Virus record (IMG/VR): IMGVR_UViG_3300020049_016712
Span: 22,006 to 86,005 of that record
DNA length: 64,000 nucleotides
Direction: 5' to 3' (one strand)
Source: a virus
Lineage: Duplodnaviria > Caudoviricetes
Shown here: positions 35,375 through 52,644 of the stretch, piece after piece
How positions within the stretch are numbered: the stretch's first letter is position 1
Layout of the letters: the number at the start of each line of letters is the position of its first letter
Notes under the pieces: model-generated
The model's input: the letters and a program-made list of their open reading frames with translations, nothing else
Told to the model about the DNA's origin: nothing
Databases searched by the model: none
Translations under genes and position numbers: made by a program

Positions 35375-38134
35375 TTAGCTGGAGGCGATGGAAGCCTGCG
35401 CTTTGCGGTGGTCGGTGAAGACCATCCCGTAAACCTGGCGGCATTTCCAGGTATACTTGTCTCCGGTGAACGCGTCGCCGACCATCGGGTCATCCTGCAG
35501 GAGAATCTGAGGATTCTGCTGACCGCCCAGGAAGCCGACTTCGACGGGCTTGTCTGCGAACATGAACCAGTTGTCGAGGTCGAAACCGAGGTAATCGCTC
35601 TGGATCGCGATTCCCGAAAGTCGACCGGTGGAAACGTCCGGATAGATGGCCGAAACGTCGTTGTTTCCGCCTCCGGGCTTGAGTCGCGAGTTGAGAATCT
35701 GGAACATCTCGGCCCGCTTCGTGTGAGGAACCACCAGTTTGACCATCCGAGGGTTCAGGAAGGCTCCGAGTTGCTCGACGCGAGCCTCGTCGGAGTGCGT
35801 TGCGGCGGTCGTTCCACCAATCCCGCGAGTCACGTTGGCGTAAGATCCGCCCGAAGAACCCGGCAGGGAGCCCACCAGCATCTTCTCGGAGTCGATCTGA
35901 ATCACATCACCTTGCTTGAGGAACGCGGTGATGTCGGTGATTGCGGTTCCGTCCCTCTTCGCCAACTGAATCTCGGTGGCGCTGGTGCTACCAATCGCGG
36001 CCTCGAGGCGCAGAACGTTGGCGAACCGGCGCTGGTTGGTCAGTCGCTCCCACATGTCGGCAACCGGCTGATATGCCAGGGTGTCCGATGCGAGGTTGTC
36101 GTGAGCCGAGTTGAAAATCGACACGGCGTCGTAACTCACGTCGGCTCCGATGGTCCCACCGTTGTTCGCGATGGCCGTCTTCCAGACCAACTCGTTCAAG
36201 GTGTGGACGCAGGAGTTCGCGATCTCCTGGGGCATCGCCTGGAGTTTGTCGAGGTCGTCGTTGACGATCATCTCCCAGGTCAACTGCACCAGATAGCCCT
36301 TTTTTGCAGCGGTGTAGGTTACCTGCTCGTCGGCAGGGAATCCGGCCTGCAGGTAAGTCCCTGCCTCGGCAACCGTTGGAACGATGCCGAGACCGCCCAC
36401 CAGAATCCGCTTCTGGGTTTTGAAGTTGTCGATGGGCACGATGGTCGCAACCTCTTGCCAGTGCGCTTCGGCCTGATTGTAGGCCTGCAGCAACGCGCGC
36501 TCGGTAGAGTCACCGAGAACGTAGGTCAGGTCAGCAGTCGTTGCCTCGACGATGCGGCCCGGGCCGTGCTGGCCCTTCTGCATCTGCCAAACATCGGCGT
36601 CGAACCACTCGCGGAAGAAGCCGCGAATCGAAGGCCGAATCGGAACCAGTCTATAAAGCTCCTTGTCGGACTCCTTGAGGCCATCGGCTTCTTGCCACTT
36701 GTAGCCCATCATCGCGTCGGCCCACTTTTTCATGCGGTCGACCTTCTCGGCTCCAACGGACACGCGAACACCGGCGCCCTCGGATTCGGGAGTTCTGCTG
36801 AGACTTGCCACGATCTTCCTCTGCCCTTCGATGGCCTCGCGCAGGTCCTCGGCCTTAAACGTGCGGCCGGAGAACTGGCGCTTGAGTTCGTCGGTCGCAA
36901 CCGAGGGAAGACCGGACTCCCGCAACTGCTCGTTTAGGAGCATGCGGCACTCGATCAGTTCGGTGCGCTTCGCGGCCTCCAGCACGGCTTTCTGGGCTTC
37001 GGTCATGGCCGGCTCAGGAGCGGCCGCAGCCGGTTGCGCAACAGGGGCCGCAACGGGAGCCTCGGGAGCAACAGGAGCCGCAGGAGCGGCCTCAGGAGTC
37101 TTGGAGGCTGGCTCCGCAACCGGTTCAACCGGCTCGGTGGTCGCCTCTTTGTAGGAGTCCATACAAGCCTTAATAGCCTGCATGGCGCCCTCCATGTTGT
37201 CTTCCTCGACCATTTTCATGATCTTCTTCTTTTTGTCGTCGGGAGTCTTCATCTCGGCCAGGCGCGCGCCCAGTGCCTCATGAAGCTCCTCGGTGCTCGA
37301 CTCCTCCAGGTTGCCGGTATACTCCAGCGAACGGAGCCCACGGACAAGCAATTTCCGATTCATTTTTGCAGCCTCCTTAACGGCTGGTGTATTTTCGGCC
37401 CCCAGGGCCTGCTCTTTGGCTCCGCCCGAAGGCGACTCCAAACTTTTCTTCAACTCTTGTGCGGTGATTCCAAATGCGGAATCCAGCGTCTCGAGTCCAG
37501 ACTGCATCGAGGCCACGAGGCGCAAAAACTTGCCTCCAGCAGCCCCTTTGGTAACCACCGTCAGTTCCTCGACTCGGGAAATTTGGCGAATCTCGCGCAC
37601 CGGCTGGCCTTCCGCATAGCCCAGCGTGTGCGGGCCTTCAGCCTCGATACTCAACTCTAGGAAATCAGCCGAACCAGACTCGGCCGCGCGCATCAGAGTG
37701 TTCCGCAGCCAGTCATCGGTAACGTGCAAATCTGCGATAATCGCGGGGACCGTCTTGCCCTGTTTCGCCGAATCGCTTTCCCCCATCCGCACGTTCCGCA
37801 ATACGCCAACAACATTCCCGGCTACACCCTCGGGAATCAGGCGGCGCACATCCATAGAGGCGTGGTCGAATCCGTCGCCTCCGCCCGGGCGCGCAAACTG
37901 GTAAATAGCAACCGGCTTACCCTCAAAAAGCGGAACAGCCTGGCGCAACACCTCGGGCTTGTAGAGATTCTTGTTGGCCGAAACCCCAGCTTCGATCACG
38001 ACCACTTGCCAGACTCGACCCTGGGGGTCCTGGGCCCGCTCGACAAGGCGCGCGTTCGGCATCGCAATGGTTTCGTAACGTAAACGTTTCACGGGTTCCG
38101 ATTTCCGCGCATGCGGAATACGAACCTTTTTCAA
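35375..38134 (-). CDS. Fused prohead protease/scaffold/major capsid protein (HK97 fold, Mu gpT-like)
   Basis: N-terminal VIEAGVSANKNLYK...LSIE protease-like region; Ala/Pro/Glu scaffold linker; capsid region TERALLQAY...DNFK...TVAEAGTY...KKGYLVQLTWEMIVNDD. Start probably later (MPNARL, 38062). Confidence 0.88.
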   Translation of the reverse strand: MKKVRIPHARKSEPVKRLRYETIAMPNARLVERAQDPQGRVWQVVVIEAGVSANKNLYKPEVLRQAVPLFEGKPVAIYQFARPGGGDGFDHASMDVRRLIPEGVAGNVVGVLRNVRMGESDSAKQGKTVPAIIADLHVTDDWLRNTLMRAAESGSADFLELSIEAEGPHTLGYAEGQPVREIRQISRVEELTVVTKGAAGGKFLRLVASMQSGLETLDSAFGITAQELKKSLESPSGGAKEQALGAENTPAVKEAAKMNRKLLVRGLRSLEYTGNLEESSTEELHEALGARLAEMKTPDDKKKKIMKMVEEDNMEGAMQAIKACMDSYKEATTEPVEPVAEPASKTPEAAPAAPVAPEAPVAAPVAQPAAAAPEPAMTEAQKAVLEAAKRTELIECRMLLNEQLRESGLPSVATDELKRQFSGRTFKAEDLREAIEGQRKIVASLSRTPESEGAGVRVSVGAEKVDRMKKWADAMMGYKWQEADGLKESDKELYRLVPIRPSIRGFFREWFDADVWQMQKGQHGPGRIVEATTADLTYVLGDSTERALLQAYNQAEAHWQEVATIVPIDNFKTQKRILVGGLGIVPTVAEAGTYLQAGFPADEQVTYTAAKKGYLVQLTWEMIVNDDLDKLQAMPQEIANSCVHTLNELVWKTAIANNGGTIGADVSYDAVSIFNSAHDNLASDTLAYQPVADMWERLTNQRRFANVLRLEAAIGSTSATEIQLAKRDGTAITDITAFLKQGDVIQIDSEKMLVGSLPGSSGGSYANVTRGIGGTTAATHSDEARVEQLGAFLNPRMVKLVVPHTKRAEMFQILNSRLKPGGGNNDVSAIYPDVSTGRLSGIAIQSDYLGFDLDNWFMFADKPVEVGFLGGQQNPQILLQDDPMVGDAFTGDKYTWKCRQVYGMVFTDHRKAQASIASS
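38103..38130 (-). promoter_or_regulatory. Late-gene motif
   Basis: Minus strand AAAAGGTTC-GTA-TTCCGCATGCGCGGAA. Confidence 0.75.
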
Positions 38135-38301: not shown

Positions 38302-38409
38302 TTATCCGCGTTTGCGTCTGCGGTGATGCCGGTTGATGAACCAGTCCTCGAAAACCACGGTGGACGCGACGACGGCCAATGCGGCAATGACCATGATGAG
38401 GAATGACAT
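38302..38409 (-). CDS. Small membrane peptide (35 aa)
   Basis: MSFLIMVIAALAVVASTVVFEDWFINRHHRRRKRG; TAATG overlap with the upstream stop. Confidence 0.6.
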   Translation of the reverse strand: MSFLIMVIAALAVVASTVVFEDWFINRHHRRRKRG

Positions 38410-38999
38410 TATCGGTTTCTCTCCGGGTAGATGTCCCATGGTTCCTGGGGAGTTTCGGTGTCCTCGACGGCGGTCAGCGTGTCTTGCGATGTCTGGAAAA
38501 CGACTCCTGCGTCTGGCTCTTTGGCGAACTCCCACTGCGTATACTCGTTCAGGTGCACGATCACTGATTCCTCGATGGCATTCCCGCCAAACAGTTGCCG
38601 GCTTCGGATCGTGCAGAAGTTTTCTCCGCGCTCGCCCAGGGCCATCTCGGGCGGCCCAACTTCCTCGCAGAACTGACCGTCCTCTCCACCGAGAGAAGCG
38701 ATGACGCTAGAAACGATTTCATCGTTGCCGGCCAAACGCCAGAAACGGTCTCCTCCGCGCTCGTGCCAGCAAGCCGCGAAAGGAGCATCCGGGTAAGCCT
38801 CGGCGATTGCGGCCGGGTCCGCTGACGGGTCGTTGACAACAGGCACCTCGTGGCCGCCAACGAAAATCATGTCGCACTCGGAGAAGCGTTCGACTTGCGC
38901 AAGGCGCTGCTTGGCCAGATCCTCGGAATCGAAACATCCGAAAGACCGCGATCCATCGGCGTTGTATACGCACCACTTGCCGTCAACCTGTTTAATCAC
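38409..38999 (-). CDS. Hypothetical protein (196 aa)
   Basis: N-terminal IKQVDGKWCVY...GCFDS..LAKQRLAQVE motif of a type seen in phage head-module proteins. Confidence 0.65.
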   Translation of the reverse strand: MIKQVDGKWCVYNADGSRSFGCFDSEDLAKQRLAQVERFSECDMIFVGGHEVPVVNDPSADPAAIAEAYPDAPFAACWHERGGDRFWRLAGNDEIVSSVIASLGGEDGQFCEEVGPPEMALGERGENFCTIRSRQLFGGNAIEESVIVHLNEYTQWEFAKEPDAGVVFQTSQDTLTAVEDTETPQEPWDIYPERNR

Positions 39000-39032: not shown

Positions 39033-39485
39033 TCAACTATACCCCAGGAACCCTTTCACCGGCATACTCTCGTAAGCGCACTCGGCGCACAGGCATTCAC
39101 CGCCAAACGGAATATGGTAAAAGTTCTTTCCACGGGTGAATAGCATCCCACAGACCAAGCAGGTGCGATCTTTGTCCATGGTCTTCCAATATACAGTGTC
39201 TGCATCGTCACTCCACTCTCTACACCAGTACAGGTCGCATTTCAAGCACAGGCACTGGCGCGGTTGGCAAACTCCCCACCTCGACCGGATGTGAATCCAA
39301 AATGGTCTGGCATGATGGTCAAATGGGTGGGCGCTGAGCGAAATATCATCCTTCGGAGCAATCACAATCTCGCCGCACTGAAGGCACTGATAGGGCACAT
39401 CCTCGCTAGCCAACTCCTCCATGAGCAAAGCGGCCTTCTGGTGTTCGCTCAGATAAGGCCGATCGGTATGGTCGTTGCTACTCAA
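39033..39485 (-). CDS. Multi Zn-finger protein
   Basis: CLQC, CLKC, CLVC, CAEC; probable TTG start overlapping the XRE gene stop. Confidence 0.6.
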   Translation of the reverse strand: MSSNDHTDRPYLSEHQKAALLMEELASEDVPYQCLQCGEIVIAPKDDISLSAHPFDHHARPFWIHIRSRWGVCQPRQCLCLKCDLYWCREWSDDADTVYWKTMDKDRTCLVCGMLFTRGKNFYHIPFGGECLCAECAYESMPVKGFLGYS

Positions 39486-39891
39486 AGAGGTCTTCGTTGA
39501 TGTCCAGGATGGCTTGCCGGATAGCGAAGTTTCGTTTGGCCTCATCTATCTCGCGGATCATTCGACAAGCGTTGCCAATCCAGATACCGGCCGCCGCCTG
39601 CTCGGACGGTTCGCATTCCATCAACTCCAAAATTGACTCGCGCAAACTCGGATCCAACTCATCTAGCAGAACTTCCTCGGGGGCGTATCCGGCCATCAGC
39701 AAGCCCTCCTCGGCGTTACCGAAATACTCGCCGATGGCCCGCGCCAACTCGCGCGATGGAATCAGTCCATCTTTCTCGATTTTTGAGAGGTAGGTGCCGT
39801 GAACACCTATAGCCTTCGCGACCTGCTTTTTTTCGCGACCACTGATTCGGCTGGAGAACCACTCCTGCCATGTTGCAATCCCACTGCCCAT
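39478..39891 (-). CDS. XRE-family HTH transcriptional regulator
   Basis: KKQVAKAIGVHGTYLSKIEKDGLIPSRELARAIGEYF; SD GGAGCAAACAGGA-ATG. Confidence 0.85.
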   Translation of the reverse strand: MGSGIATWQEWFSSRISGREKKQVAKAIGVHGTYLSKIEKDGLIPSRELARAIGEYFGNAEEGLLMAGYAPEEVLLDELDPSLRESILELMECEPSEQAAAGIWIGNACRMIREIDEAKRNFAIRQAILDINEDLFE

Positions 39892-40011: not shown

Positions 40012-40464
40012 CTAGTAAAGTTTGAACTTTCGCTTGCCGGCATCGTCGCGCACCGCCGTCCATCCGTCGCGCTGCTCGTAGATGGCGATAGGCAGACGTG
40101 TATGCGCACCGGCGCGCGCCCACTTGAGGATGTCGACGGCCACCGAAAGCGGCAAGTTGTGGGTCGTGCCATCGCGACACTTGACCACCCGCATGGCGTT
40201 CGGATCGCGACTCAACTCGGCCTCGACCTTCTCGTCAGACGGGATAGGCTCATCTTTAATGACCACGTCGAAATCCTGCGTGATAGACTCTTTGAACACC
40301 TCGCGGAGTAACTCGACTTCGTCATCTTCGAGCCTGCTCTGGACCTTGACGCCCTCTTTGCCCTCGGCCTCCAGAGCCTCCACCAGGTGCTTCGATTCAA
40401 CGGGTTCTCCGTTGACTTCGATACCCTTTTTCGACAATTCCTTTGCTAGTTGCCAGACGAGCAT
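40012..40464 (-). CDS. Protein with translation initiation factor IF2 N-terminal-like domain
   Basis: Start revised to 40464 (SD GGAGG): MLVWQLAKEL...ESKHLVEAL...G...KVQSRLEDDEVELLREVF resembles the IF2_N consensus. Confidence 0.7.
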   Translation of the reverse strand: MLVWQLAKELSKKGIEVNGEPVESKHLVEALEAEGKEGVKVQSRLEDDEVELLREVFKESITQDFDVVIKDEPIPSDEKVEAELSRDPNAMRVVKCRDGTTHNLPLSVAVDILKWARAGAHTRLPIAIYEQRDGWTAVRDDAGKRKFKLY

Positions 40465-40520
40465 GTTTCCTCCGAATAATTCTGATCTGGATTGGATTCG
40501 AGCTTGCCGAAGGTTTTCCT

Positions 40521-41498
40521 TCACTCTTCGGGTCCTGCTAAGCCGCCGTCGCCGAGCAGCCATTCGCCAGCGGTCTGGCCTTTCGCCTTGCGCGGTAGGG
40601 AGTTGGGAGTCCATACGACCCACGAGCATCGGCATAACGGGTGTTGGGGAATGGTAGGCGCCTTCTCGTTGCCGATGCTTCCCTTTGGGTCTTTGTATTG
40701 CGTCGACCCAGGTATGTCGCGCAGGTCAACCGCACCTTTATCCGTGTAGGGCGTTCCGTCGAGCCGATACCGGCGGCCATCGAACGGCGCGCATCGGGGA
40801 CAAGCATCAGCCTGAGCCACATACAACTTAAGCACGTCCCAACCCGGAAACTCATAGGCCAATTGTTCCATGCGCGCGGTCATCACCGCCTGCACCGACC
40901 TGGCCAATTCTGTTCGAGCAATCATCCGAGCCCGCACAGCAATGGAGCGCCACACTCCGGGCTTGCCGATGTGTTTCTCGATGGCCCGAGCCAGGTCGTC
41001 GATACTCGCGCCCGAGACCACGGCTGCGGTGACCTCCTGCGCAATCTGCTCCCGTGCGTAAAGCGAGAGGCCAGAGATATACTGCTGTCGAGCCGCCGCC
41101 TCCAGGGCCGAGCGGCCGGGCAGTTCGGCCAAATTGCGCACCATCTCAGGATTAAACTCGGGAATCAGGAGCGAAAGGTGCGTGTCGACGATTTGCCGTC
41201 CAATCAACACCGAATCCTCAATAACCGGATTCACGTCGGTTGCGAACTCCAGAGCCGCAGCCGTCGTCTCGGGCTTGGCCATGTCGACCACGGGCTTAAT
41301 CCACGATGGCCCGAAGGGGAGAATCTTGCGCGCTCGATCAAAGGCGCCAGAGAGGCCATCGACAACCCGCCTGCGCAGGTTCACAATGGACCCTAGAGCC
41401 TTTTTCCTGACCTCGGCGTCTTTCTGGTCGAGTCGGTTGAACAATGGCCGTAAACGGTCCTGCAGGCGCCTGAGAAGGCTTCGTTTTTCCTCACCCAT
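40521..41498 (-). CDS. Minor head protein (Mu gpF / SPP1 gp7-like)
   Basis: RARMIARTELARS; CPRC; PQHPLCRCSWV. Confidence 0.9.
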   Translation of the reverse strand: MGEEKRSLLRRLQDRLRPLFNRLDQKDAEVRKKALGSIVNLRRRVVDGLSGAFDRARKILPFGPSWIKPVVDMAKPETTAAALEFATDVNPVIEDSVLIGRQIVDTHLSLLIPEFNPEMVRNLAELPGRSALEAAARQQYISGLSLYAREQIAQEVTAAVVSGASIDDLARAIEKHIGKPGVWRSIAVRARMIARTELARSVQAVMTARMEQLAYEFPGWDVLKLYVAQADACPRCAPFDGRRYRLDGTPYTDKGAVDLRDIPGSTQYKDPKGSIGNEKAPTIPQHPLCRCSWVVWTPNSLPRKAKGQTAGEWLLGDGGLAGPEE

Positions 41499-41943
41499 TG
41501 GTAAATTCTAACACATTCCACAACCACTCGGCTCGCGCATCCAGTTTCTCGATAACAGACCGGCTTGGCGGTGGCCACATGGGCTGGCGATGACCAATCC
41601 AGAAAACCCATTCCCGACCGGTGCACAGGCGAGACTTCTCGTTTCGGCAATTCGGAGAGGTTCCCAACGATGAAGTGGTAATCCTGTTGTCGGGCACCTC
41701 TGAGATCTCTTCAAGTGTTATTTTCCGGCCATTTCGGTGGGGCCATATCATGAAGTCGTGAACGATGAACATTCTCATCAGGTAATCATCGAGGTTGACG
41801 AAGTAAATATGGTCGAACCGAACATTAGAATCCCATGGACAATAGGCATGCAGGTCGAGTCGGTTGGTGGCAACCCTGCGGAACTCGATAGCCGGAGTCG
41901 CCAGCCAACCATCGAACATGAACGCGGCATACTCGGCGCTCAT
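41491..41943 (-). CDS. Hypothetical protein, array member
   Basis: Start MSAEY by ATGA overlap; ends WVFW...LWNVLEFTNG. Confidence 0.65.
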   Translation of the reverse strand: MSAEYAAFMFDGWLATPAIEFRRVATNRLDLHAYCPWDSNVRFDHIYFVNLDDYLMRMFIVHDFMIWPHRNGRKITLEEISEVPDNRITTSSLGTSPNCRNEKSRLCTGREWVFWIGHRQPMWPPPSRSVIEKLDARAEWLWNVLEFTNG

Positions 41944-42398
41944 AAGGCAAGGTCGACCATCGTCAGCCATCCAGGTCCGTGTTCGCGCAGTGGACTAATC
42001 AGGTCTTCGGGATTCTCGGGGACTGGAGGGATGGCAATATTGAAGGCTAGCCAGAACCGACCATGTTCAGGAGTATGAAACAAGTTCGGATGCGCTTTCG
42101 ACTCAAAATACGGACGGTGAATCCGTATCATGGTGTATCCACCAGGCGTATAGTCAACGACAGTCTTGTTCGAACCATGTATCCTAAACGCCATTTCCGA
42201 CACAATGTCGAGCAGAACGAACCCAAATCCGATCCCTTCTCTTCCATCCACCAGGTCCATTCCTGCAGGAAACATCGCAGCGGTTACGACGTACAGAGGA
42301 AACGATTCCCTGGCCTTCCACACGACCACCGGCCCGACCATCCAGTCGCCGATTTCGAAGCCTCGAGTCCCTATCTCGCCAGTTCTGCGATGGTCCAT
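41940..42398 (-). CDS. Hypothetical protein, array member
   Basis: Ends GRFWLAF...LTMVDLAL. Confidence 0.65.
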   Translation of the reverse strand: MDHRRTGEIGTRGFEIGDWMVGPVVVWKARESFPLYVVTAAMFPAGMDLVDGREGIGFGFVLLDIVSEMAFRIHGSNKTVVDYTPGGYTMIRIHRPYFESKAHPNLFHTPEHGRFWLAFNIAIPPVPENPEDLISPLREHGPGWLTMVDLAL

Positions 42399-42808
42399 AG
42401 GTCGGCAGCCCGCTCCTTCAGTTTAACGAGAACCTCAACAGGAGGTGGCACAGTATGGGACAGATCCTTGCTCCAAAACACCCAGAATCGCCCTCGAGAT
42501 TCCAGTAAGAGCGGATCCTGGTGTTCGTATGCGGCGATATGGGAAATCGGCTCCGTGTCCTCCAACACCACGATAATCATTCCTGAATCCATGGTTTCAA
42601 TGTGATAGTCCTCGAACGTATACCCGCATACAAGCATGGTGTCGATGTCGGCTATCCACACGGGCCAGTAACAGAAATTTTTCATCGGAACCCCAATTAG
42701 TCCATAGGGGCAAATCGTCTCTAGCGCATATTCCTTGCCGAACTCGGAACCAGCGTTTAGGACCGGACCGAACACCCAACCGTCTATAACAAAGGCGTTG
42801 TCGTTCAT
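42371..42808 (-). CDS. Hypothetical protein, array member
   Basis: Ends GRFWVFW...LWTIAELAR. Confidence 0.65.
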   Translation of the reverse strand: MNDNAFVIDGWVFGPVLNAGSEFGKEYALETICPYGLIGVPMKNFCYWPVWIADIDTMLVCGYTFEDYHIETMDSGMIIVVLEDTEPISHIAAYEHQDPLLLESRGRFWVFWSKDLSHTVPPPVEVLVKLKERAADLWTIAELAR

Positions 42809-43374
42809 TGTCCGGCCGCGAGGTCGATCATGGTTTGGCGCGGCGTTGCCTTGCGCATAACAGCCTTGAACATCTTCTCCATTTTCTCAGACGAGAACCT
42901 GCGAGGGTGAAGGATGACCCAAAACGACTCCTCCGATGCCGGCATGAAATCGCCATGTCCGGTAGCATCGAACACGACATGGGTGGGCCTGGTGGCTGGA
43001 GGCCTGGGCAGTATCGGTGCGTTTCGAAATCCGAAATGCTTAGTCGCTATCGTGTCGCCTAGCCGATACCCGATATTGTTCTCGATCATGATGGCGTCGC
43101 GGGCCATGTCGATCCGAGCGTATGGCATCGTGACGCAAACCCCAGTGCGCATACCGATGAACGTCGCCATGTGCCGATTCCAAAGACAAGTGTATAATTT
43201 CTCACTAACAGCCCTGTAGGCTGATTTATAGGCATTGCTGGCATCTTCGCTCCCATAGAAAGGATTGGGACCAATGTCGAGAAAGGCCGTAAGTTCTCCT
43301 GGACTCCATTCGGCCACGTGAACCACCAGATAGCGGTAACTCATAAACGCCGTCAGCATTTGAGGGAAACTCAT
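42805..43374 (-). CDS. Hypothetical protein, array member
   Basis: Ends SFWVIL...QTMIDLAAGQ. Confidence 0.65.
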   Translation of the reverse strand: MSFPQMLTAFMSYRYLVVHVAEWSPGELTAFLDIGPNPFYGSEDASNAYKSAYRAVSEKLYTCLWNRHMATFIGMRTGVCVTMPYARIDMARDAIMIENNIGYRLGDTIATKHFGFRNAPILPRPPATRPTHVVFDATGHGDFMPASEESFWVILHPRRFSSEKMEKMFKAVMRKATPRQTMIDLAAGQ

Positions 43375-43874
43375 TTAGCCAGGTCCGTCATGATCTGAAA
43401 TGGCTCGGCTTGCCGGAGGATGCGTTTTTTGAGGTCCAAGCACCTGCTCTCGCTGGGTTTGGTCGGGCACATGGCGACCCAAAAATCCTCTGACTCAGTA
43501 GGGCTCCATCCGTGTTGCTCGGTGTAGAATAAGGGCTTTTTGGAGGCACCATACTGAATGGTCCATCCATCAGGAATTCCATCGGTCGGGGTCCGAACCG
43601 AACAATGATGAATCCTGATAACTAAAGGCATGTCGTCGTAGTAGAAAACCGGATGAAACCCGAATGGAACCGCCGCGAGTCCGCAGTACCCTGTCTGCAT
43701 CCCAACCAGAAGTATGTGCTTCGCGGACGAATCGTATAGAACACACCTGCGCCACTCATCAAGTATCGCTTCTGGTTGCGGCCATCGGACGATGATTCGC
43801 GTATCGCTCATGCCAGCGTATTCGATGCGCTCGACCGGGAATACCGGGAAATTGTCGATAACGAAGCCGATCAT
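43371..43874 (-). CDS. Hypothetical protein, array member
   Basis: Start MIGFVIDN by ATGA overlap; ends DFWVAM...QIMTDLAK. Confidence 0.65.
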   Translation of the reverse strand: MIGFVIDNFPVFPVERIEYAGMSDTRIIVRWPQPEAILDEWRRCVLYDSSAKHILLVGMQTGYCGLAAVPFGFHPVFYYDDMPLVIRIHHCSVRTPTDGIPDGWTIQYGASKKPLFYTEQHGWSPTESEDFWVAMCPTKPSESRCLDLKKRILRQAEPFQIMTDLAK

Positions 43875-44017
43875 CGAGGCAACTCGCAATCAAGCACGAA
43901 AGCCCCGAACTGCGCACAAACCTCGAGGCACGGCGCGCAAGAGAAGACGGGATCCATGGGGCTCCCAACCGTGTGGACCCGACCAACGATTTCCTGGTTG
44001 CACAAACCGCACACCAT
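43871..44017 (-). CDS. Mini Zn-finger protein (48 aa)
   Basis: MVCGLC...CAPC; TGATG and ATGA overlaps on both sides. Confidence 0.6.
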   Translation of the reverse strand: MVCGLCNQEIVGRVHTVGSPMDPVFSCAPCLEVCAQFGAFVLDCELPR

Positions 44018-44448
44018 CAAAGGAAATCCTGCATCAAACACAATTTCTCGGACATCGTGTCGGCAATTTCCCACAAAACCCTATGCTCGAGCTTGGACAT
44101 CTTCCAGGGCACCATAGCTGCCACTGCTCCCCTGAAAGAATATTCATTGTCCATCAGGAGCCCAAACATGGTTGAATATGTCGGCCCGTCAAAGGCATCT
44201 TTATAAACCGAGATGCGCATGTAATCATCATGCACCCACAGGTCGAACAAGCCCTTCGGAAGCACGTCATCGCAGCCAAGGCTTGGAAACCGCAGATACA
44301 AGGTCAAATCGTGGTAGTCGTGACCCATTCCAAGCCATTCGACCAGGGCACCGGTGCGCCTGATATACAGGTTCACTCCAACGGGACCAGAGCGCGCACC
44401 AAGAACCGGAATAACTGGGCACTCCTCGATCAACAAATGCTTTCCCAC
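44017..44448 (-). CDS. Hypothetical protein, array member
   Basis: Aromatic-rich like its neighbours; ends LCLMQDFL. Confidence 0.6.
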   Translation of the reverse strand: MGKHLLIEECPVIPVLGARSGPVGVNLYIRRTGALVEWLGMGHDYHDLTLYLRFPSLGCDDVLPKGLFDLWVHDDYMRISVYKDAFDGPTYSTMFGLLMDNEYSFRGAVAAMVPWKMSKLEHRVLWEIADTMSEKLCLMQDFL

Positions 44449-44773: not shown

Positions 44774-46495
44774 TTACCGGGCCACGAGGCCTTTGCCGGT
44801 CACGAAATGGCTGCTGTCATCAAAGGCCATGGGCTTGTCGGAAGGGTCTCGCATTCGCGACAACAACGAGGCTATCCTTTGCGACTCTTCCATAATCTCA
44901 TCAGCGTCAGCCGATAGCATCGGATCTTCGTTATCGTTAGCATCCTCCGCTGGCAACTCGATGCCCATATCCTCCACCGCGCGCCGCATAATGTGACGCA
45001 CCTCCTGAGTGCTCAGGGCATTCATCCCGGTCGAGATGGCCAGCCCCTCGGCAAGGCCCTTGATAGCCCCCATCGCCTGCGTATAGCGGTCAGGGTCAGG
45101 GTCGGCGCCAACCACCTGGAAGCATAACTCCTCGTCAGGAACGGAATTCAATTTCCCGAACTTCTTGGCGCGCTGCAGCGCATACTCAAGCTCGAGTGAG
45201 ATTCCGTCTTGAATGATTTTCGTTCTCCGAGCGCGAGCCCAGGCGTAAACCGGGTCGGACATCTCGGCCGCCGAGGCCCGGTTGGTGTTGTTCGCTTCCG
45301 CGAAAAAGTGCTCAGGAAGCCCCATTCCGCCCCACCCATAGAGGAAAATCAGGCGCGCAATTGACGTAATGTCGCCACCGCTCAAGTTTGGAGCCAGCGG
45401 GAGCCAATCCTCGCGGCCATCGGTCACCAAATACTCACCAGGCTGAGGCGGAAAGAGTTTCAATTCCTCGTTTTTCTTGCGCAAGTCCTCATCGGATGCA
45501 CCGTCGATGATGACCTTCCAGACGAACGATAGGAGCAACTGGGCCCGCTCGGTTCCAGTCATGAGGAGGACGTTATACATGTCGAGCCACTCCATGACGT
45601 GAGCCAGATCCGAAAGTCCGCGCGACATCCCGAGCAGATTGTTGATCCGCAAATGGATGGCCTGCCCCTCGATTTTCCCGGTGTCGCTCCCGGCGCGCAA
45701 CCGCCGCATAATCTTGAATTCTTTTCCGTATGGGCCCTCGGAGTCTTTCATGACGCTTTCGCGGAAGCGCAACGACAGGGCCTGCTCCAGGTCCCATGGG
45801 TCGAGATTGACGCAAGCGATGTCCTGCGGCAGGAATTGCCCAACTCGGAATTTCGGGTCGGTGAATTCTTCTCCAGATACTCGGCGCGCGGTATAGTCGT
45901 CGTCGCGAATGACCCTGATCCACTCGCCGTGGATACCCAGGTTCCAGACGCGTTCTCGAGTCTTGGATGGCCAGTTGTTGTATTGCCAATGCTCGTCAAG
46001 CACCTCCTGAACCATAGGAGCCCACTCCTCGGCACAGGTTGCGACCGGCTTGAATCCTCCACCCACGATGAAATCGGTGCGCACCTGCATGCCACGATTG
46101 GCGAGCGGATTGAAAATCATCTCCTCGGCCCGGCGCACCTGCTCAAGCCATTTCTGCGGCGAGATGTCCCTAAATTGGTTTCCGTTGGCCGACCATTCGG
46201 TATAGCCGTAATCCGACTCTCCGTGAAACAGGTTGGCCATGTCCGGGTAGGCCTCGGCGATGTAAGACCGCGCCTTGTGCGTTAGCGCGAACGGGCTCTT
46301 CAGGCCGAATCGAGGCGACTTGTAGGGCTTGTGATCACCCTCGTCGGATTCGGATTCGGTCTTGCGGATCGGCGCCGCTGGAACGGGTTCCACGCCGCGC
46401 CCCAGGCCCTCGCGGATGACATCGGCATGGCTCGGCACCGCGATGCCGGATTTTCTGAGTCCGAAAAACTGCTGCGCTCGATGAAGGAAACCCAT
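44774..46495 (-). CDS. Portal protein
   Basis: 573 aa between terminase and gpF-like genes; MSRGLSDL, GMGLPEHFF, NTNRASA. Confidence 0.88.
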   Translation of the reverse strand: MGFLHRAQQFFGLRKSGIAVPSHADVIREGLGRGVEPVPAAPIRKTESESDEGDHKPYKSPRFGLKSPFALTHKARSYIAEAYPDMANLFHGESDYGYTEWSANGNQFRDISPQKWLEQVRRAEEMIFNPLANRGMQVRTDFIVGGGFKPVATCAEEWAPMVQEVLDEHWQYNNWPSKTRERVWNLGIHGEWIRVIRDDDYTARRVSGEEFTDPKFRVGQFLPQDIACVNLDPWDLEQALSLRFRESVMKDSEGPYGKEFKIMRRLRAGSDTGKIEGQAIHLRINNLLGMSRGLSDLAHVMEWLDMYNVLLMTGTERAQLLLSFVWKVIIDGASDEDLRKKNEELKLFPPQPGEYLVTDGREDWLPLAPNLSGGDITSIARLIFLYGWGGMGLPEHFFAEANNTNRASAAEMSDPVYAWARARRTKIIQDGISLELEYALQRAKKFGKLNSVPDEELCFQVVGADPDPDRYTQAMGAIKGLAEGLAISTGMNALSTQEVRHIMRRAVEDMGIELPAEDANDNEDPMLSADADEIMEESQRIASLLSRMRDPSDKPMAFDDSSHFVTGKGLVAR

Positions 46496-48315: not shown

Positions 48316-50106
48316 TCACCTTCGCCTGCCATTCTTCTGCGACATGCGCTGCCGAATCCTCTGCGCCTGCGTCAACTGCCTGACGCGGACAGGCTTCGAC
48401 TCAGTATTCTCTGTTGACTCCTGTTTTCCTTTGTTATCCTGTTCGTCTTCGTCGGATGGAGGAGGCGGCAACGGTGCCGAAGTTCGAAACGATGACGGGC
48501 CCGCGGCGAGTCGCAGTTTCATCAGAACCTGGCTCATCATGTCGACGATGTCGTTTGAGGCCGACAGCGGGAATGAGGAGACTTCATCGAGAACAGCCCG
48601 AACCCATGGCGCCTCGTTTGGATGCGGCAGCCACACCAACCGCCCATCGTTGACCAACGGGGAAACGGCACGGGCCCTCTGTTCCTTCGACCCGTGAACG
48701 CGCGGGTCGACCGCAACGATGCCCGAGAACGAAGACTTCATCTCGGAAACCAGGGCCGGACCAAGAGCTTTGTCCTCGACGTAATGGAGATTCGCGGCCG
48801 GATGCTTCTCGGCCATCGCGGCAAACATTTCCTTCTGGCCGCCGTATTCGACGCGCTTGCGAACCATGTCCCACAAGAAGTAGCCGAGCCCTAGGTGATG
48901 CTTGCGGGCCGTGCGACCCCAGCAACCGCCAACCGACCATGACGAGGTCGGATTTCCCTTGACGGCCAGGTCCCAGGAGGTCACCAGAGCCTCGAATGGG
49001 TGCTTCAGGCCAGCCGGAACACCGGTCCAGACCGACTCGACATAGACCGGCTCGTCAAGCCCGCACAAAAGAGCCACGTCCTTGCACCAGAACCCCTCGT
49101 TGCGGGTCGTGTACCAGCGGAAGTTCTGGCGCTCGAAACAACCGCCGGAGGAAGGGCGCGGGTCCTGCTGGTGCTGGGCCGCGTAGTTGTATGAGCCCAT
49201 TCCATCGCCCGATTTCTCTAAGTCGAGCTTTTCCCGAGTGAAACGTTTGGGGCACATCAACTCTCCGCGTTCGGTGCGAGGGTCGGTCCACCCGATACAC
49301 GTATAGACGCGGCGCATCGGGTCGAACTCCTGCTGAATCATGAGGTGCTCCCAATCGCCCTCTGACAGCAGGGTTGCCGACAGGTCAGCCTCATGACCGC
49401 GTTGCGCAACCGCGATCCATCGCGTCTTCCCGGGCTGATTCTCGCGGGAACGGATGGCCTGCTTGTATACCCTGTTCACGGCCTCGCGGCGGGCTTTTGA
49501 GTGAATTTCCTTCAGGTTGTTCGGGTCGTCGAGAATCACGAACGAGCCGCCGAAACCGGTCGCGACACCGTCCATCGACGCGGATATGCGGCGCCCGGTT
49601 TCCGAGTTGACGTAAGTCAGTTTGGTGTTTTTGTCGCCTCTGAGCGTATAGAGGTCGCCCCAATTTTCCTGATACCACGATGACTGAATGATGTCCCTGC
49701 AAGTGCGCGAATGCTCCTCGGCCAGTTTCTCGGCGTAGGATAAGCACAAGAACCGCTCGGAAGGATCCTTAATCCAAACCCAGGCCGGAAACGCCACAGA
49801 CACCAGAATCGACTTGGACGAACGTGGCGGGATGTTGATGAGCAGTTTGGTGATTTGCCGGTGATAGACGGCTTCGCAGTGCTCGGCCATGGCCTCGATG
49901 TGCCACCCGGGCGTGAACTTCTCGCGTTCGATCAATCTCCAACACTGCTTGAAAAACGAAAAAAACGACTCTTCAGCCGCCTCTTTGAGGATTTTTTTCG
50001 CAGTCGCGATAGCCTCGGGACCCGTCATATTCATGACCGCGCTGTTCAGGATGCGGTCTAGCGCCACCCTGGGCGCATCTGGCGGGTTCGGGTTCGAATA
50101 GTTCAC
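48316..50106 (-). CDS. terL: Terminase large subunit
   Basis: INIPPRSSKS (Walker A-like), VILDDP, nuclease motifs SWDLA, VEDKALG, NDIVD. Confidence 0.95.
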   Translation of the reverse strand: MNYSNPNPPDAPRVALDRILNSAVMNMTGPEAIATAKKILKEAAEESFFSFFKQCWRLIEREKFTPGWHIEAMAEHCEAVYHRQITKLLINIPPRSSKSILVSVAFPAWVWIKDPSERFLCLSYAEKLAEEHSRTCRDIIQSSWYQENWGDLYTLRGDKNTKLTYVNSETGRRISASMDGVATGFGGSFVILDDPNNLKEIHSKARREAVNRVYKQAIRSRENQPGKTRWIAVAQRGHEADLSATLLSEGDWEHLMIQQEFDPMRRVYTCIGWTDPRTERGELMCPKRFTREKLDLEKSGDGMGSYNYAAQHQQDPRPSSGGCFERQNFRWYTTRNEGFWCKDVALLCGLDEPVYVESVWTGVPAGLKHPFEALVTSWDLAVKGNPTSSWSVGGCWGRTARKHHLGLGYFLWDMVRKRVEYGGQKEMFAAMAEKHPAANLHYVEDKALGPALVSEMKSSFSGIVAVDPRVHGSKEQRARAVSPLVNDGRLVWLPHPNEAPWVRAVLDEVSSFPLSASNDIVDMMSQVLMKLRLAAGPSSFRTSAPLPPPPSDEDEQDNKGKQESTENTESKPVRVRQLTQAQRIRQRMSQKNGRRR

Positions 50107-50374
50107 ATAGTGAATTTACCCCGAGTAAACGTGAAAACCCTTCAATCTACCCACTCGCCGGGCAGCGGGAACTTCTCCCGACTGAATTCGATGTATTTGA
50201 TCGCAGGCGGATGAGGAGGCCTGTCCTCGGGAGCCATTCCTCGGTAGTTTGGCGGAAATTCAGGTGGCATCGAGGCGATTGTATATTGCTCCAAAAATGG
50301 CGGCCGGTCGGCCATGCGTTATTGCTGCGTCAAGCACAGTATATCCGCACTCTGCCGACCGGCCCCAAACCTTT

Positions 50375-50710
50375 CTATTCGGCGTCGAGCGCCTCGAGTC
50401 GGGCAAGGACGTTGGCCTTGATGGTTTCGGCGCGCTCGTCGCTCAGGAACTTGCTGGCGAACTCACCCGTGTTGCAGTCGAACCAGAACTTCGAACTGCT
50501 CAGGTCTGCAAGCAGGCGTTTGGCCGACCCGTTCGAGATGTCCTCACCGTTCAATTTGGCGCCAGAAACGTTACCGCTTTTATAGGTCGTGTACTCGAGG
50601 CCCAACCAGGCGGCGAGGTCGTTGAAATAAACGCGGTCCATACTACCGCTGGTCCAACGGCGGCCACCGATTTTCTCAAGGCTATTAGGTTTAATGTTCG
50701 TGGTTTCCAT
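50375..50710 (-). CDS. Hypothetical phage protein (111 aa)
   Basis: Start revised to METTNIK after the full conserved leader; GRRW...DRVYFN. Confidence 0.75.
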   Translation of the reverse strand: METTNIKPNSLEKIGGRRWTSGSMDRVYFNDLAAWLGLEYTTYKSGNVSGAKLNGEDISNGSAKRLLADLSSSKFWFDCNTGEFASKFLSDERAETIKANVLARLEALDAE

Positions 50711-50744
50711 CGTTCGTTTGCTCCGTTTCGTTTGCTCTATAAGC

Positions 50745-50773
50745 AGTATATCAATATGGTTAACCTTTGTCAA
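50745..50773 (-). promoter_or_regulatory. Sigma70 promoter with embedded GTTAAC box (copy 6)
   Basis: TTGACA-AAGGTTAACCATATTGA (17 nt)-TATACT. Confidence 0.88.
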
Positions 50774-50777
50774 CAGG

Positions 50778-51158
50778 TCAGAACAAATCCAGTTGCCCGG
50801 ACTGGTCAAAGCCGGATTCGCGTTTCCACGCCTTGGCCGCTGCCCGGTCGTCACTTGTAGACAGATTCTCCTCCGGCCATTCCCAGGGCGCGCGACGGGC
50901 CAGTTCAGCCCACAACTCAGGCGTTACCTCCCACGGCGGCCCCGAATATCCCAACACCCGGAACCAACCCATCGACCGGCAAATCTTCACCGCGCGGGCC
51001 ACCACCTCGGCAGGCCATCCCTCCTCTAGCATGATGGTCGCCTCCATCACCTGGCCAACCGTCAAGCCCTTGGTCCGCAACGGGTTTGCCTGACCCAGGA
51101 TGCGACGACAGGTCTGCTCCAGCGTCACCTGCACAGCTCGGCCACCGAATCCAGCCAC
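50778..51158 (-). CDS. Hypothetical protein
   Basis: Ends QLDLF, resembling a clamp-binding QL[S/D]LF motif. Confidence 0.55.
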   Translation of the reverse strand: MAGFGGRAVQVTLEQTCRRILGQANPLRTKGLTVGQVMEATIMLEEGWPAEVVARAVKICRSMGWFRVLGYSGPPWEVTPELWAELARRAPWEWPEENLSTSDDRAAAKAWKRESGFDQSGQLDLF

Positions 51159-51520
51159 TCCAGCAAGTCCGACAGGTCACTATCCTGGCCCTCAAAGCCC
51201 AACTCCATAACCCGATAAGCCAGGTCGACAGCCTGCTGGCGTCTTGCCATACCCTGCTCAACAATCACGTCCTCTAACAGCCAGTGCATCAACGCTCCCG
51301 ATTTCATCAGCCGCTCAGCAGGGTAAAAGTTCGACCGTTCAACCAGGAACTGCGCAACAGCCTCATGGTTCTTCCTGAGTCGAGCAGCCCCAAGCCAGGC
51401 CCCCTTGAGTTGGTCCAACCGCGAAATCGTTCCCAGAGAAGCCCACTCCAGCCAGGGCTCGCGCGACGGCATGCCCAACGTGCCGAACCGAGCATCCACC
51501 GGCGCCAACGATTCACTCAC
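51125..51520 (-). CDS. Hypothetical protein
   Basis: Probable GTG start overlapping the terS stop; ends SVAELCR. Confidence 0.55.
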   Translation of the reverse strand: MSESLAPVDARFGTLGMPSREPWLEWASLGTISRLDQLKGAWLGAARLRKNHEAVAQFLVERSNFYPAERLMKSGALMHWLLEDVIVEQGMARRQQAVDLAYRVMELGFEGQDSDLSDLLEWLDSVAELCR

Positions 51521-52319
51521 CGTCGTCCTCATCATCGTCGTCGTCGTCCTCCTCGTCCTCGTCGGCCATCGATGTTCCCGAAAGCAACCCGTAAACCTCC
51601 GGCTCCTCACCAGCCGCCCTCAGCAGGGCCCGAGCCAGAATCTCCTTCTCAGCCTGCCCCAATCCGGCCAGGCCCGGCAACTCGCGAGCCTCGACCTTCA
51701 CCACCAATTCCTCCATGCCTCGGACCCGAGCCTCGCCCTTGATACCCAGGTCGACAATCTTGGCCAGTTTGTCAACAGGAGTCTTGAGAATCTCCTCTGG
51801 CGACTTGCTCATGATTCCGACCATACCAACACCCTGCAAATGCGTATACTGCTTGATGTGCCGCACTCGGACCTCGGCTTGCTCTTTCATCACCTGCTCA
51901 CGGGCCAACCGGTCGACCTCGAGGTCCCAGGCCTCCACCCGTTCCCCCCACCGATACCGAGTGCTCCAATGCTTCCAAACACCGTCGCAATACTGTTTGT
52001 CCGGTACTTCCCGCGAACTACCACCGTTAACCTTTGTCAACTCCAGGTTGGCCTGAAAAGCCTTAGCCAAACTGCGCCCACGGCCAAGGTCACGATACAC
52101 ACAGAAAGCCCTGTATGCATGCATGGTCTCCCATTCTTGCTTGTCCCAGAGCAACCCGACATACTCGACCGCGTCGCCCACTTTGGCCGTGGCCTTCCGA
52201 CCGCCTTTGCGCCGTGCTGGCGATTTGGTCTTGACCTTGGACTTGCTCGTTTTGGGCGGCAATTTAGCATTAGCCGGCTTAGCCTTGGCTTTGGTCTTCT
52301 TCTCTGGCTTATCGCTCAT
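51513..52319 (-). CDS. terS: Terminase small subunit (probable)
   Basis: WDKQEWETMHAYRAFCVYRDLGRGRSLAKA...WSTRYRWGERVEAWD pattern; upstream of terL; acidic tail. Confidence 0.7.
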   Translation of the reverse strand: MSDKPEKKTKAKAKPANAKLPPKTSKSKVKTKSPARRKGGRKATAKVGDAVEYVGLLWDKQEWETMHAYRAFCVYRDLGRGRSLAKAFQANLELTKVNGGSSREVPDKQYCDGVWKHWSTRYRWGERVEAWDLEVDRLAREQVMKEQAEVRVRHIKQYTHLQGVGMVGIMSKSPEEILKTPVDKLAKIVDLGIKGEARVRGMEELVVKVEARELPGLAGLGQAEKEILARALLRAAGEEPEVYGLLSGTSMADEDEEDDDDDDEDDGE

Positions 52320-52326
52320 AGCATTC

Positions 52327-52644
52327 CTAGTCCCAGGGGGTTTCCCGGTATCCGATTTCCCGCAACGCGCGCGCGAAATCATCAAAGGCCGCGCGGCAGG
52401 TCACCAGTTGCCCGGCAATGGCCATCAGGTCGGCATCGAAAAATCTCGATTCCCCATCTCGGGCCAACTCCCTCATGATCCAGTGCGCCTCTCGTATTTC
52501 ATTCAATTCGGATAGCGTCGTTTCCCCCAACACCTCGGCCGGAGTCCTGGAATAGGGCGAGCAGTCCGAGCAGCAAATACCGCCGGCCATTGACGCTCTT
52601 GGGCCCTGCTTGCCGCAACCTATGCACGTCGCTTCCTTCAACAC
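52327..52644 (-). CDS. Zn-finger hypothetical protein
   Basis: CIGC...CSDC. Confidence 0.55.
   Translation of the reverse strand: MLKEATCIGCGKQGPRASMAGGICCSDCSPYSRTPAEVLGETTLSELNEIREAHWIMRELARDGESRFFDADLMAIAGQLVTCRAAFDDFARALREIGYRETPWD

Follow-up and report, generated by a model that had tools for sequence, protein, structure and literature searches.

A phage protein that joins an IF2N-type domain to a basic C-terminal domain, encoded within a head gene module

The locus studied here raises the question of what a phage protein of 150 amino acids, which begins like the bacterial translation initiation factor IF2 and then departs from it, is doing among the genes of a head module. An earlier note had placed an IF2 N-domain-like fold at positions 40012-40464 and had offered two readings of it, an IF2 mimic or a repurposed helix-turn-helix-like binder of nucleic acids. 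Our analysis covers the window, by which we mean the whole 64,000-nt stretch of DNA that was analysed, corresponding to bases 22006-86005 of an IMG/VR virus record of 86 kb, from an uncultured phage, that is estimated to be 89% complete. All coordinates given below are those of the window, except where another contig is named.

The gene and its setting

The open reading frame (ORF) lies at 40012..40464 on the minus strand, exactly where the earlier note had put it. It runs from an ATG at 40464..40462 to a stop codon at 40014..40012 (150 codons plus the stop) and is preceded by a GGAGG Shine-Dalgarno (SD) sequence, read from the sequence at 40469..40473 of the same strand, 4 nt 5' of the ATG. 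The sole relative that we found keeps this ATG, with its own GGAGG located 8 nt 5' of it. A longer reading of 207 codons, starting from 40635, is unsupported, as it overlaps the preceding gene and the relative uses the ATG of the shorter form. Further, the comparison with this relative, a single pair whose synonymous sites are near saturation, gave a dN/dS of 0.17 for the whole ORF, with 0.13 for residues 1-60, 0.47 for the linker that follows, and 0.16 for residues 77-150. The low values in the N-terminal and C-terminal domains indicate that both are under purifying selection. Given the strong SD, the low dN/dS in both domains, and the retained synteny with a Mu-F-like gene (see below), the target is a real gene under selection.

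Nearly all of the genes are encoded on the minus strand, and the head operon that had been claimed as the setting is indeed there, with terL, portal, Mu-F-like, and protease-capsid genes present. In minus-strand gene order, a TerS-like gene (51513-52385; phrog_6299, E 4e-16) and terL (48316-50106) are followed by small Cys-rich genes, the portal gene (44774-46495), six divergent paralogous ORFs (41491-44448, minus strand), and the Mu-F-like minor head gene (40521-41498), which lies 56 nt before the target. Downstream of the target come an XRE-type HTH_3 gene (39478-39891, minus strand) at a distance of 120 nt, a Cys-rich gene (39033-39545, minus strand), a gene for a product of 196 aa (38409-38999), and a gene for a 919-aa protease-major-capsid fusion (35375-38134, minus strand). 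We found no sigma-70-like promoter or intrinsic terminator between the target and its neighbours, which suggests that it is probably part of the late-operon transcript, and the gene is thus probably late-transcribed. Its position in the head module is not proof of a structural role, because the module is unusually rich in accessory genes.

Several of these neighbours can be described further. The TerS-like gene lies ~1.4 kb from terL, with two or three unannotated ORFs in this region (50107-52385). The six paralogues between the portal and Mu-F-like genes encode 143-189 aa each, are consecutive and mostly overlapping, and share 11-29% identity, a common FWV strand, and an (I/M)x(D/E)LA C-terminal tail; Pfam and PHROG searches with two of the six returned no match. 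The HTH_3 gene (Pfam, 27 bits; PADLOC HTH_VI, E 1.5e-4) occupies an unusual site for a transcription regulator. The product of 39033-39545 (170 aa) contains several CxxC pairs, likely zinc ribbons, and matched no family. The fusion at 35375-38134 combines a prohead-protease-like region with a major capsid region (Phage_capsid_4, phrog_133, phrog_4523), joined by an Ala/Pro-rich middle, and no separate scaffold gene was seen alongside it. Initiation looks SD-poor across the genome, which may hint at the host. Two simple assignments for the target itself were considered and rejected, namely, a small terminase (there was no PHROG TerS match, and the TerS-like gene sits ~11 kb away) and a partner of the HTH_3 gene in a toxin-antitoxin or defence cassette (there was no PADLOC support, and a gap of 120 nt separates the two genes).

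The N-terminal domain and its kinship with IF2

Residues 1-60 (40285..40464, minus strand) form an IF2N-type domain, as indicated by Pfam, by a profile HMM of our own, and by an AF2 model. IF2_N (PF04760) was the sole Pfam family matched, at 19.8 bits (E 6.7e-4), with residues 22-58 aligned to profile positions 15-51; the corresponding scores were 18.4 bits in a six-frame scan and 17.6 bits for the relative. These scores fall below the Pfam gathering threshold of 25.3 bits, and the target is therefore not an IF2_N member by the curated criterion. The Pfam alignment, which is local, ends at a 10-aa insertion. Genuine IF2_N domains, gathered from 5 and then from 151 bacterial genomes, scored ~32 to 75 bits among the copies itemised or summarised for 155 genomes; at the thresholds used, each genome gave at most two IF2_N matches, and those that we inspected sit in long, IF2-sized frames.

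Separate profiles were used for N1, the extreme N-terminal copy of the domain in IF2 (26 sequences), and for N2, the copy that precedes the G domain. The N1 HMM aligned residues 3-59 of the target to model positions 6-52, thereby spanning the domain with a single insertion of 10 aa, and scored its N-terminal 62 aa at 25.9 bits and the relative at 29.4 bits. None of 3000 shuffled sequences reached the real score (the best attained 18.1 bits), and the reversed sequence scored 0.6 bits. With hhalign, the probability was 96.7% against the N1 domains (P 3.8e-10, 47 columns) and 95.6% against the first 220 aa of IF2, where the similarity ends with N1. The N2-type profile did not recognise the target (-0.6 bits). 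With a median of 32% and a maximum of 44%, the identity of the target to the N1 domains is within what these domains show among themselves (median 37%). On the same HMM, Thermus N/G1 scored 71.5 bits, whereas the N1 fragments of Escherichia coli and Pseudomonas aeruginosa scored ~1-2 bits, which marks the phage domain as one of the canonical IF2N type. Hence, the first domain of the phage protein is homologous to the extreme N-terminal (IF2N/N1) domain of IF2 and of the same type as Thermus N/G1, an assignment that we regard as solid. The likeness to IF2_N put forward in the earlier note is thus borne out by the N1 HMM, its shuffled controls, and hhalign, and the insertion of ~10 aa that it described is recovered in the N1 HMM alignment as KKGIEVNGEP (residues 12-21). 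The comparison with profiles that it had proposed gave a divided answer, significant with the N1 HMM and hhalign, and sub-threshold with Pfam IF2_N.

Structural comparison points to the same family. The AF2 model, computed from an alignment of the two family members with 26 N1 domains (AF2 on the single sequence reached a pLDDT of only 47.9), has a pLDDT of ~90 for residues 1-60 and is not fully independent of the sequence result, since IF2 sequences are part of its alignment. In a VIA structural search, the best match was the Thermus IF2 N domain (4b3x_A, residues 4-66), with a Z of 7.8 and an rmsd of 2.1 A over 60 aa at 32% identity, which is 2 Z units above the next fold. The folds that followed were those of pSK1 Par (Z 5.8) and RacA (Z 5.5), with MerR-type proteins (CvkR, TipAL, CueR, and SoxR) and GlnR at Z 3.6-4.2. 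Foldseek, another check named in the earlier note, also ranked Thermus IF2 on top, at E 0.02-0.15, and these were the only coherent matches. An ESM Atlas model, made without an IF2 alignment, gave weaker matches, to IF2 and to IF2_N clusters. Neither the protein nor the profile of the two family sequences gave a significant match in sequence searches of the PDB.

The fold is thus kept, and the surface is remodelled. The insertion (40402..40431, minus strand) falls in the turn between alpha1 and alpha2, where it is modelled as a small beta-hairpin, DSSP assigning strands at residues 16-17 and 20-21 within it, and its columns are gaps in 26 of the 26 IF2 N1 sequences. An alignment of solved IF2 chains places S277-V278-K279 of N2 from P. 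aeruginosa at this turn; where that protein has K279, the phage protein has Glu. When a consensus position is defined as a residue common to at least 60% of the 26 N1 sequences, 13 of 19 such positions are kept, in the core and the LAKEL helix, including V-x-x-L-A-K-E-L and G...S-x-L. The start Met and K3 are missing (the protein begins three residues later), as are R5 (Leu in the phage protein), V42 (Gly), K43 (Val), and H45 (Val), and four basic residues (K3, R5, K43, and H45) are accordingly gone. The domain carries a net charge of -6, compared to -4 to +3 across the 26 N1 domains, although charge alone is a weak argument because Thermus N/G1 is, by our own count, also acidic. Taken together, the insertion in the contact turn, the loss of basic residues, and the net charge of -6 make it doubtful that the same partners are bound in the same way.

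Set beside the IF2N/N1 domain, as represented by Thermus N/G1 (4B3X, residues 4-66) and PF04760, the phage domain is alike in its whole-domain profile, its extreme N-terminal place, its fold, and the flexible linker that comes after it, and it differs in the 10-aa hairpin of the alpha1-alpha2 turn, the absence of the four basic residues, its greater acidity, and its sub-threshold Pfam score. Moreover, it is joined to a basic domain of 74 aa, rather than to the linker, N2, G, II, C1, and C2 of IF2. With N2 as placed on h16 (P. aeruginosa, 7UIU), it shares the fold class, but the N2 profile is blind to the phage protein, and the contact turn is split. Domain I of E. coli IF2 (N1 plus beta-strands at 57-90) is likewise an IF2 N-terminal module and, as a detachable docking unit, provides a precedent away from the ribosome; its N1 fragments score ~2 bits on the N1 HMM, however, compared with 26 bits for the phage domain, and the likeness of the phage protein ends at N1. 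Finally, the winged helices of MerR, RacA, and Par (5I41, 8CSH, and 2VZ4) resemble the phage domain in having three helices and a hairpin (Z 4.2-5.8), whereas the phage domain matches none of them by profile, its surface is acidic, and its turn carries an insertion.

The C-terminal domain and the reach of the family

The IF2N-type domain is followed by an acidic linker (residues 61-76; 40237..40284, minus strand; pI 4.05), which is poorly conserved, as its dN/dS reflects, and has a pLDDT of 43 over residues 61-70. The remainder is a basic alpha/beta domain (residues 77-150; 40015..40236, minus strand) with a pI of 9.3 and a predicted topology of helix, beta-beta, helix, beta-beta-beta. The AF2 pLDDT is 73-87 for residues 71-120 and 50-62 for residues 121-150, and the two family members hardly differ over residues 114-148. 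We found no match to this domain in Pfam, PHROGs, NCBIfam, or PADLOC, in agreement with the novel C-terminal domain that had been described for this protein, and its Atlas matches remained at or below 0.77 in features and below 0.5 in structural TM. Its fold had no natural-protein match among the matches listed by VIA, BFVD, and Atlas shape searches, which were made with the full-protein model and are dominated by the N-domain; we therefore put forward no new fold. The C-terminal beta-meander bears a likeness, by eye, to the N-terminus of the 38409-38999 product; this was rejected, with no BLASTP support. The protein, at 150 aa and with no match to GTP_EFTU, IF-2, or EF-G_D2, also lacks a GTPase domain, as had been claimed. 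Without GTPase and tRNA-binding domains, it cannot replace IF2.

The family is, at present, known from two members. A word-indexed search of 5.8e9 clusters recovered one relative (P0002; 68% identity), carried on two short ENA metagenome contigs, and the N-domain alone as a query returned this same relative and nothing further. An exhaustive phmmer search over 1.8e9 representatives matched nothing except the query itself. Scans of IMG/VR and of genome and metagenome contigs with the protein or the alignment and a tblastn search of INPHARED revealed no relative, and a search for Mu-F in viral contigs was likewise empty. No counterpart turned up among the ORFs of TerL-related prophage loci (7) and viral contigs (37) when these were scanned with the N1 HMM and the profile of the target. 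On the contig of the relative (L003), the gene located upstream encodes the C-terminus of this Mu-F-like protein, such that the synteny is that of the target genome. The gap between the two genes is ~310 nt there (L003, 374-682), as against 56 nt here, and the gene caller stretched the ORF of the relative into it (213 aa), which is probably an over-call. The Atlas clusters include small stand-alone IF2_N-like proteins, as well as one viral IF2_N cluster. Separately, the nearest cellular relatives of TerL (39% identity) are on Desulforhopalus singaporensis contigs (L005 and L006), whose portal, Mu-F, and capsid genes have no detectable relation to those of this phage; the terminase alone is shared.

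What the protein may do

The known behaviour of IF2N-type domains frames the possible roles of the phage protein. IF2 is anchored to the 30S shoulder, via 16S h16, by its N2 subdomain and, in Thermus, by N/G1; in P. aeruginosa, N2 (residues 266-312, PDB 7UIU) touches h16 mainly by S277-V278-K279, and Thermus N/G1 superposes on N2 at 1 A (PMC9192638). In E. coli, IF2 Domain I binds, via N1, the KH2-AR1 region of NusA, as established by pull-down, crosslinking, and single-molecule tracking, with position 13 of N1 being one of three that photo-crosslink to NusA; this is the only direct test of a distal N1 copy (PMC12297416). Within IF2, the distal N1 is tethered on a flexible linker, according to Laursen 2004 as cited in PMC12297416. 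The premise of the earlier note that the IF2 N-domain contacts the ribosome is therefore correct for N2 and Thermus N/G1, through 16S h16 (PMC9192638), while the distal N1 of E. coli bound NusA instead (PMC12297416). Together, the NusA, h16, and flexible-linker precedents suggest that IF2N modules act as detachable docking units, and this forms the basis for reading the phage protein as an adaptor. The AR1 region of NusA is also the binding site of the phage lambda N protein.

On our analysis, the likeliest role of this two-domain protein, which we put forward tentatively and at less than even confidence, may be that of a docking or adaptor protein on the host gene-expression machinery. The IF2N module would have been taken over as a docking unit and would bring the basic C-terminal domain to some part of the host gene-expression machinery by which IF2N-type modules are normally recognised; candidate docking sites are the 30S shoulder and the elongation complex of NusA and RNA polymerase. 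The changes in the contact loop point to a shifted specificity more than to straightforward competition with IF2. Several observations weigh against such docking: the insertion breaks the alpha1-alpha2 turn, which provides the main h16 contact in N2 and is adjacent to position 13 of E. coli N1, one of those that crosslink to NusA; K3, R5, K43, and H45 are replaced, at a net charge of -6; the binding of NusA is known from the E. coli N1 alone, which barely resembles the canonical type; and a family of two members provides no map of a conserved surface.

Direct mimicry, in which the protein would take the N-domain site on the 30S subunit and shift initiation toward the SD-less or leaderless late mRNAs of the phage, was the first reading offered in the earlier note, and we consider it very improbable. 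In its favour, N2, which binds h16, and Thermus N/G1, the nearest homologue with a solved structure, superpose at 1 A (PMC9192638), and many phage genes have no obvious SD. However, SD-poor starts are genome-wide rather than late-specific (a GGAG- or GAGG-type SD stands at the longest start in 7 of 24 late-region genes and in 25 of the 70 long minus-strand ORFs of the whole window, and at any candidate start in 42 of these 70), and the target is itself preceded by a strong SD. For IF2 to act on leaderless mRNAs, its tRNA-binding and GTPase parts are required, and the G domain, domain II, and the fMet-tRNA-binding C1/C2 domains are all absent here. The turn that would contact h16 is split by the 10-aa insertion, with Glu in place of K279, and the conserved basic residues are gone.

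A regulatory role fares somewhat better, although we still judge it unlikely. Here the protein, whose IF2N fold is of one structural class with the winged-helix DNA binders of the MerR, RacA, Par, and excisionase types, would bind DNA or RNA, from the phage or the host, by means of its basic C-terminal domain, with or without help from the N-domain, and would regulate late functions together with the XRE-type HTH neighbour, a proposal to which the pI of 9.3, the HTH_3 gene 120 nt downstream, and the DNA-binding folds that come next after IF2 in the structural search (pSK1 Par, RacA, MerR-type, and GlnR, at Z 3.6-5.8) lend some weight. Yet, the sequence similarity is specific to IF2N, no HTH or MerR family of Pfam was matched even at E 10, and the turn of the helix-turn-helix holds the insertion. 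The fallback offered in the earlier note, an HTH-like binder, fits with respect to the fold class (MerR, RacA, and Par, Z 4-5.8), but the N-domain is acidic (net -6), because of which any nucleic-acid binding would more likely reside in the basic C-terminal domain. Also to be weighed is an accessory role in head assembly or in the capsid interior, for which the chances also appear rather low: the protein would act with the Mu-F-like protein or the portal, would perhaps be packaged and ejected with the DNA, and would use its IF2N-like domain as a protein-protein module only. Proteins of the Mu-F/gp7 type are known capsid-internal proteins, no promoter or terminator separates the target from the head operon, and the gene directly follows the Mu-F-like gene in both known genomes, although this synteny is weak evidence because the two genomes are close relatives. 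In opposition, no PHROG head family was matched, a counterpart was present in 0 of 37 TerL-related viral contigs and 0 of 7 related prophage loci, and many non-structural-looking genes break up the head module.

Considering the docking role further, a more detailed scenario can be hypothesized, although we regard it as unlikely when taken as a whole. The phage would have taken up the 5' portion of infB from a host, possibly along with its strong ribosome-binding site, and would now use it as an address tag or decoy that brings a novel basic domain to the machinery coupling transcription to translation, at NusA-RNA polymerase or at the shoulder of the 30S subunit, with the hairpin retuning its specificity; the protein would be made late and perhaps be carried into the next cell with Mu-F-type head proteins. 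If true, this would define a new class of host-takeover factor.

The finding is a modest one, comprising a solid domain assignment, a family of two members, and surface features that argue against simple mimicry. Nevertheless, the role of the distal N-terminal module of IF2 is still being worked out, with its binding to NusA in E. coli having been reported only in 2025, and phage copies of host modules are often pointers to the true partners of those modules. A stand-alone phage IF2N domain that is both under selection and remodelled is thus a natural probe of what this module binds outside IF2.
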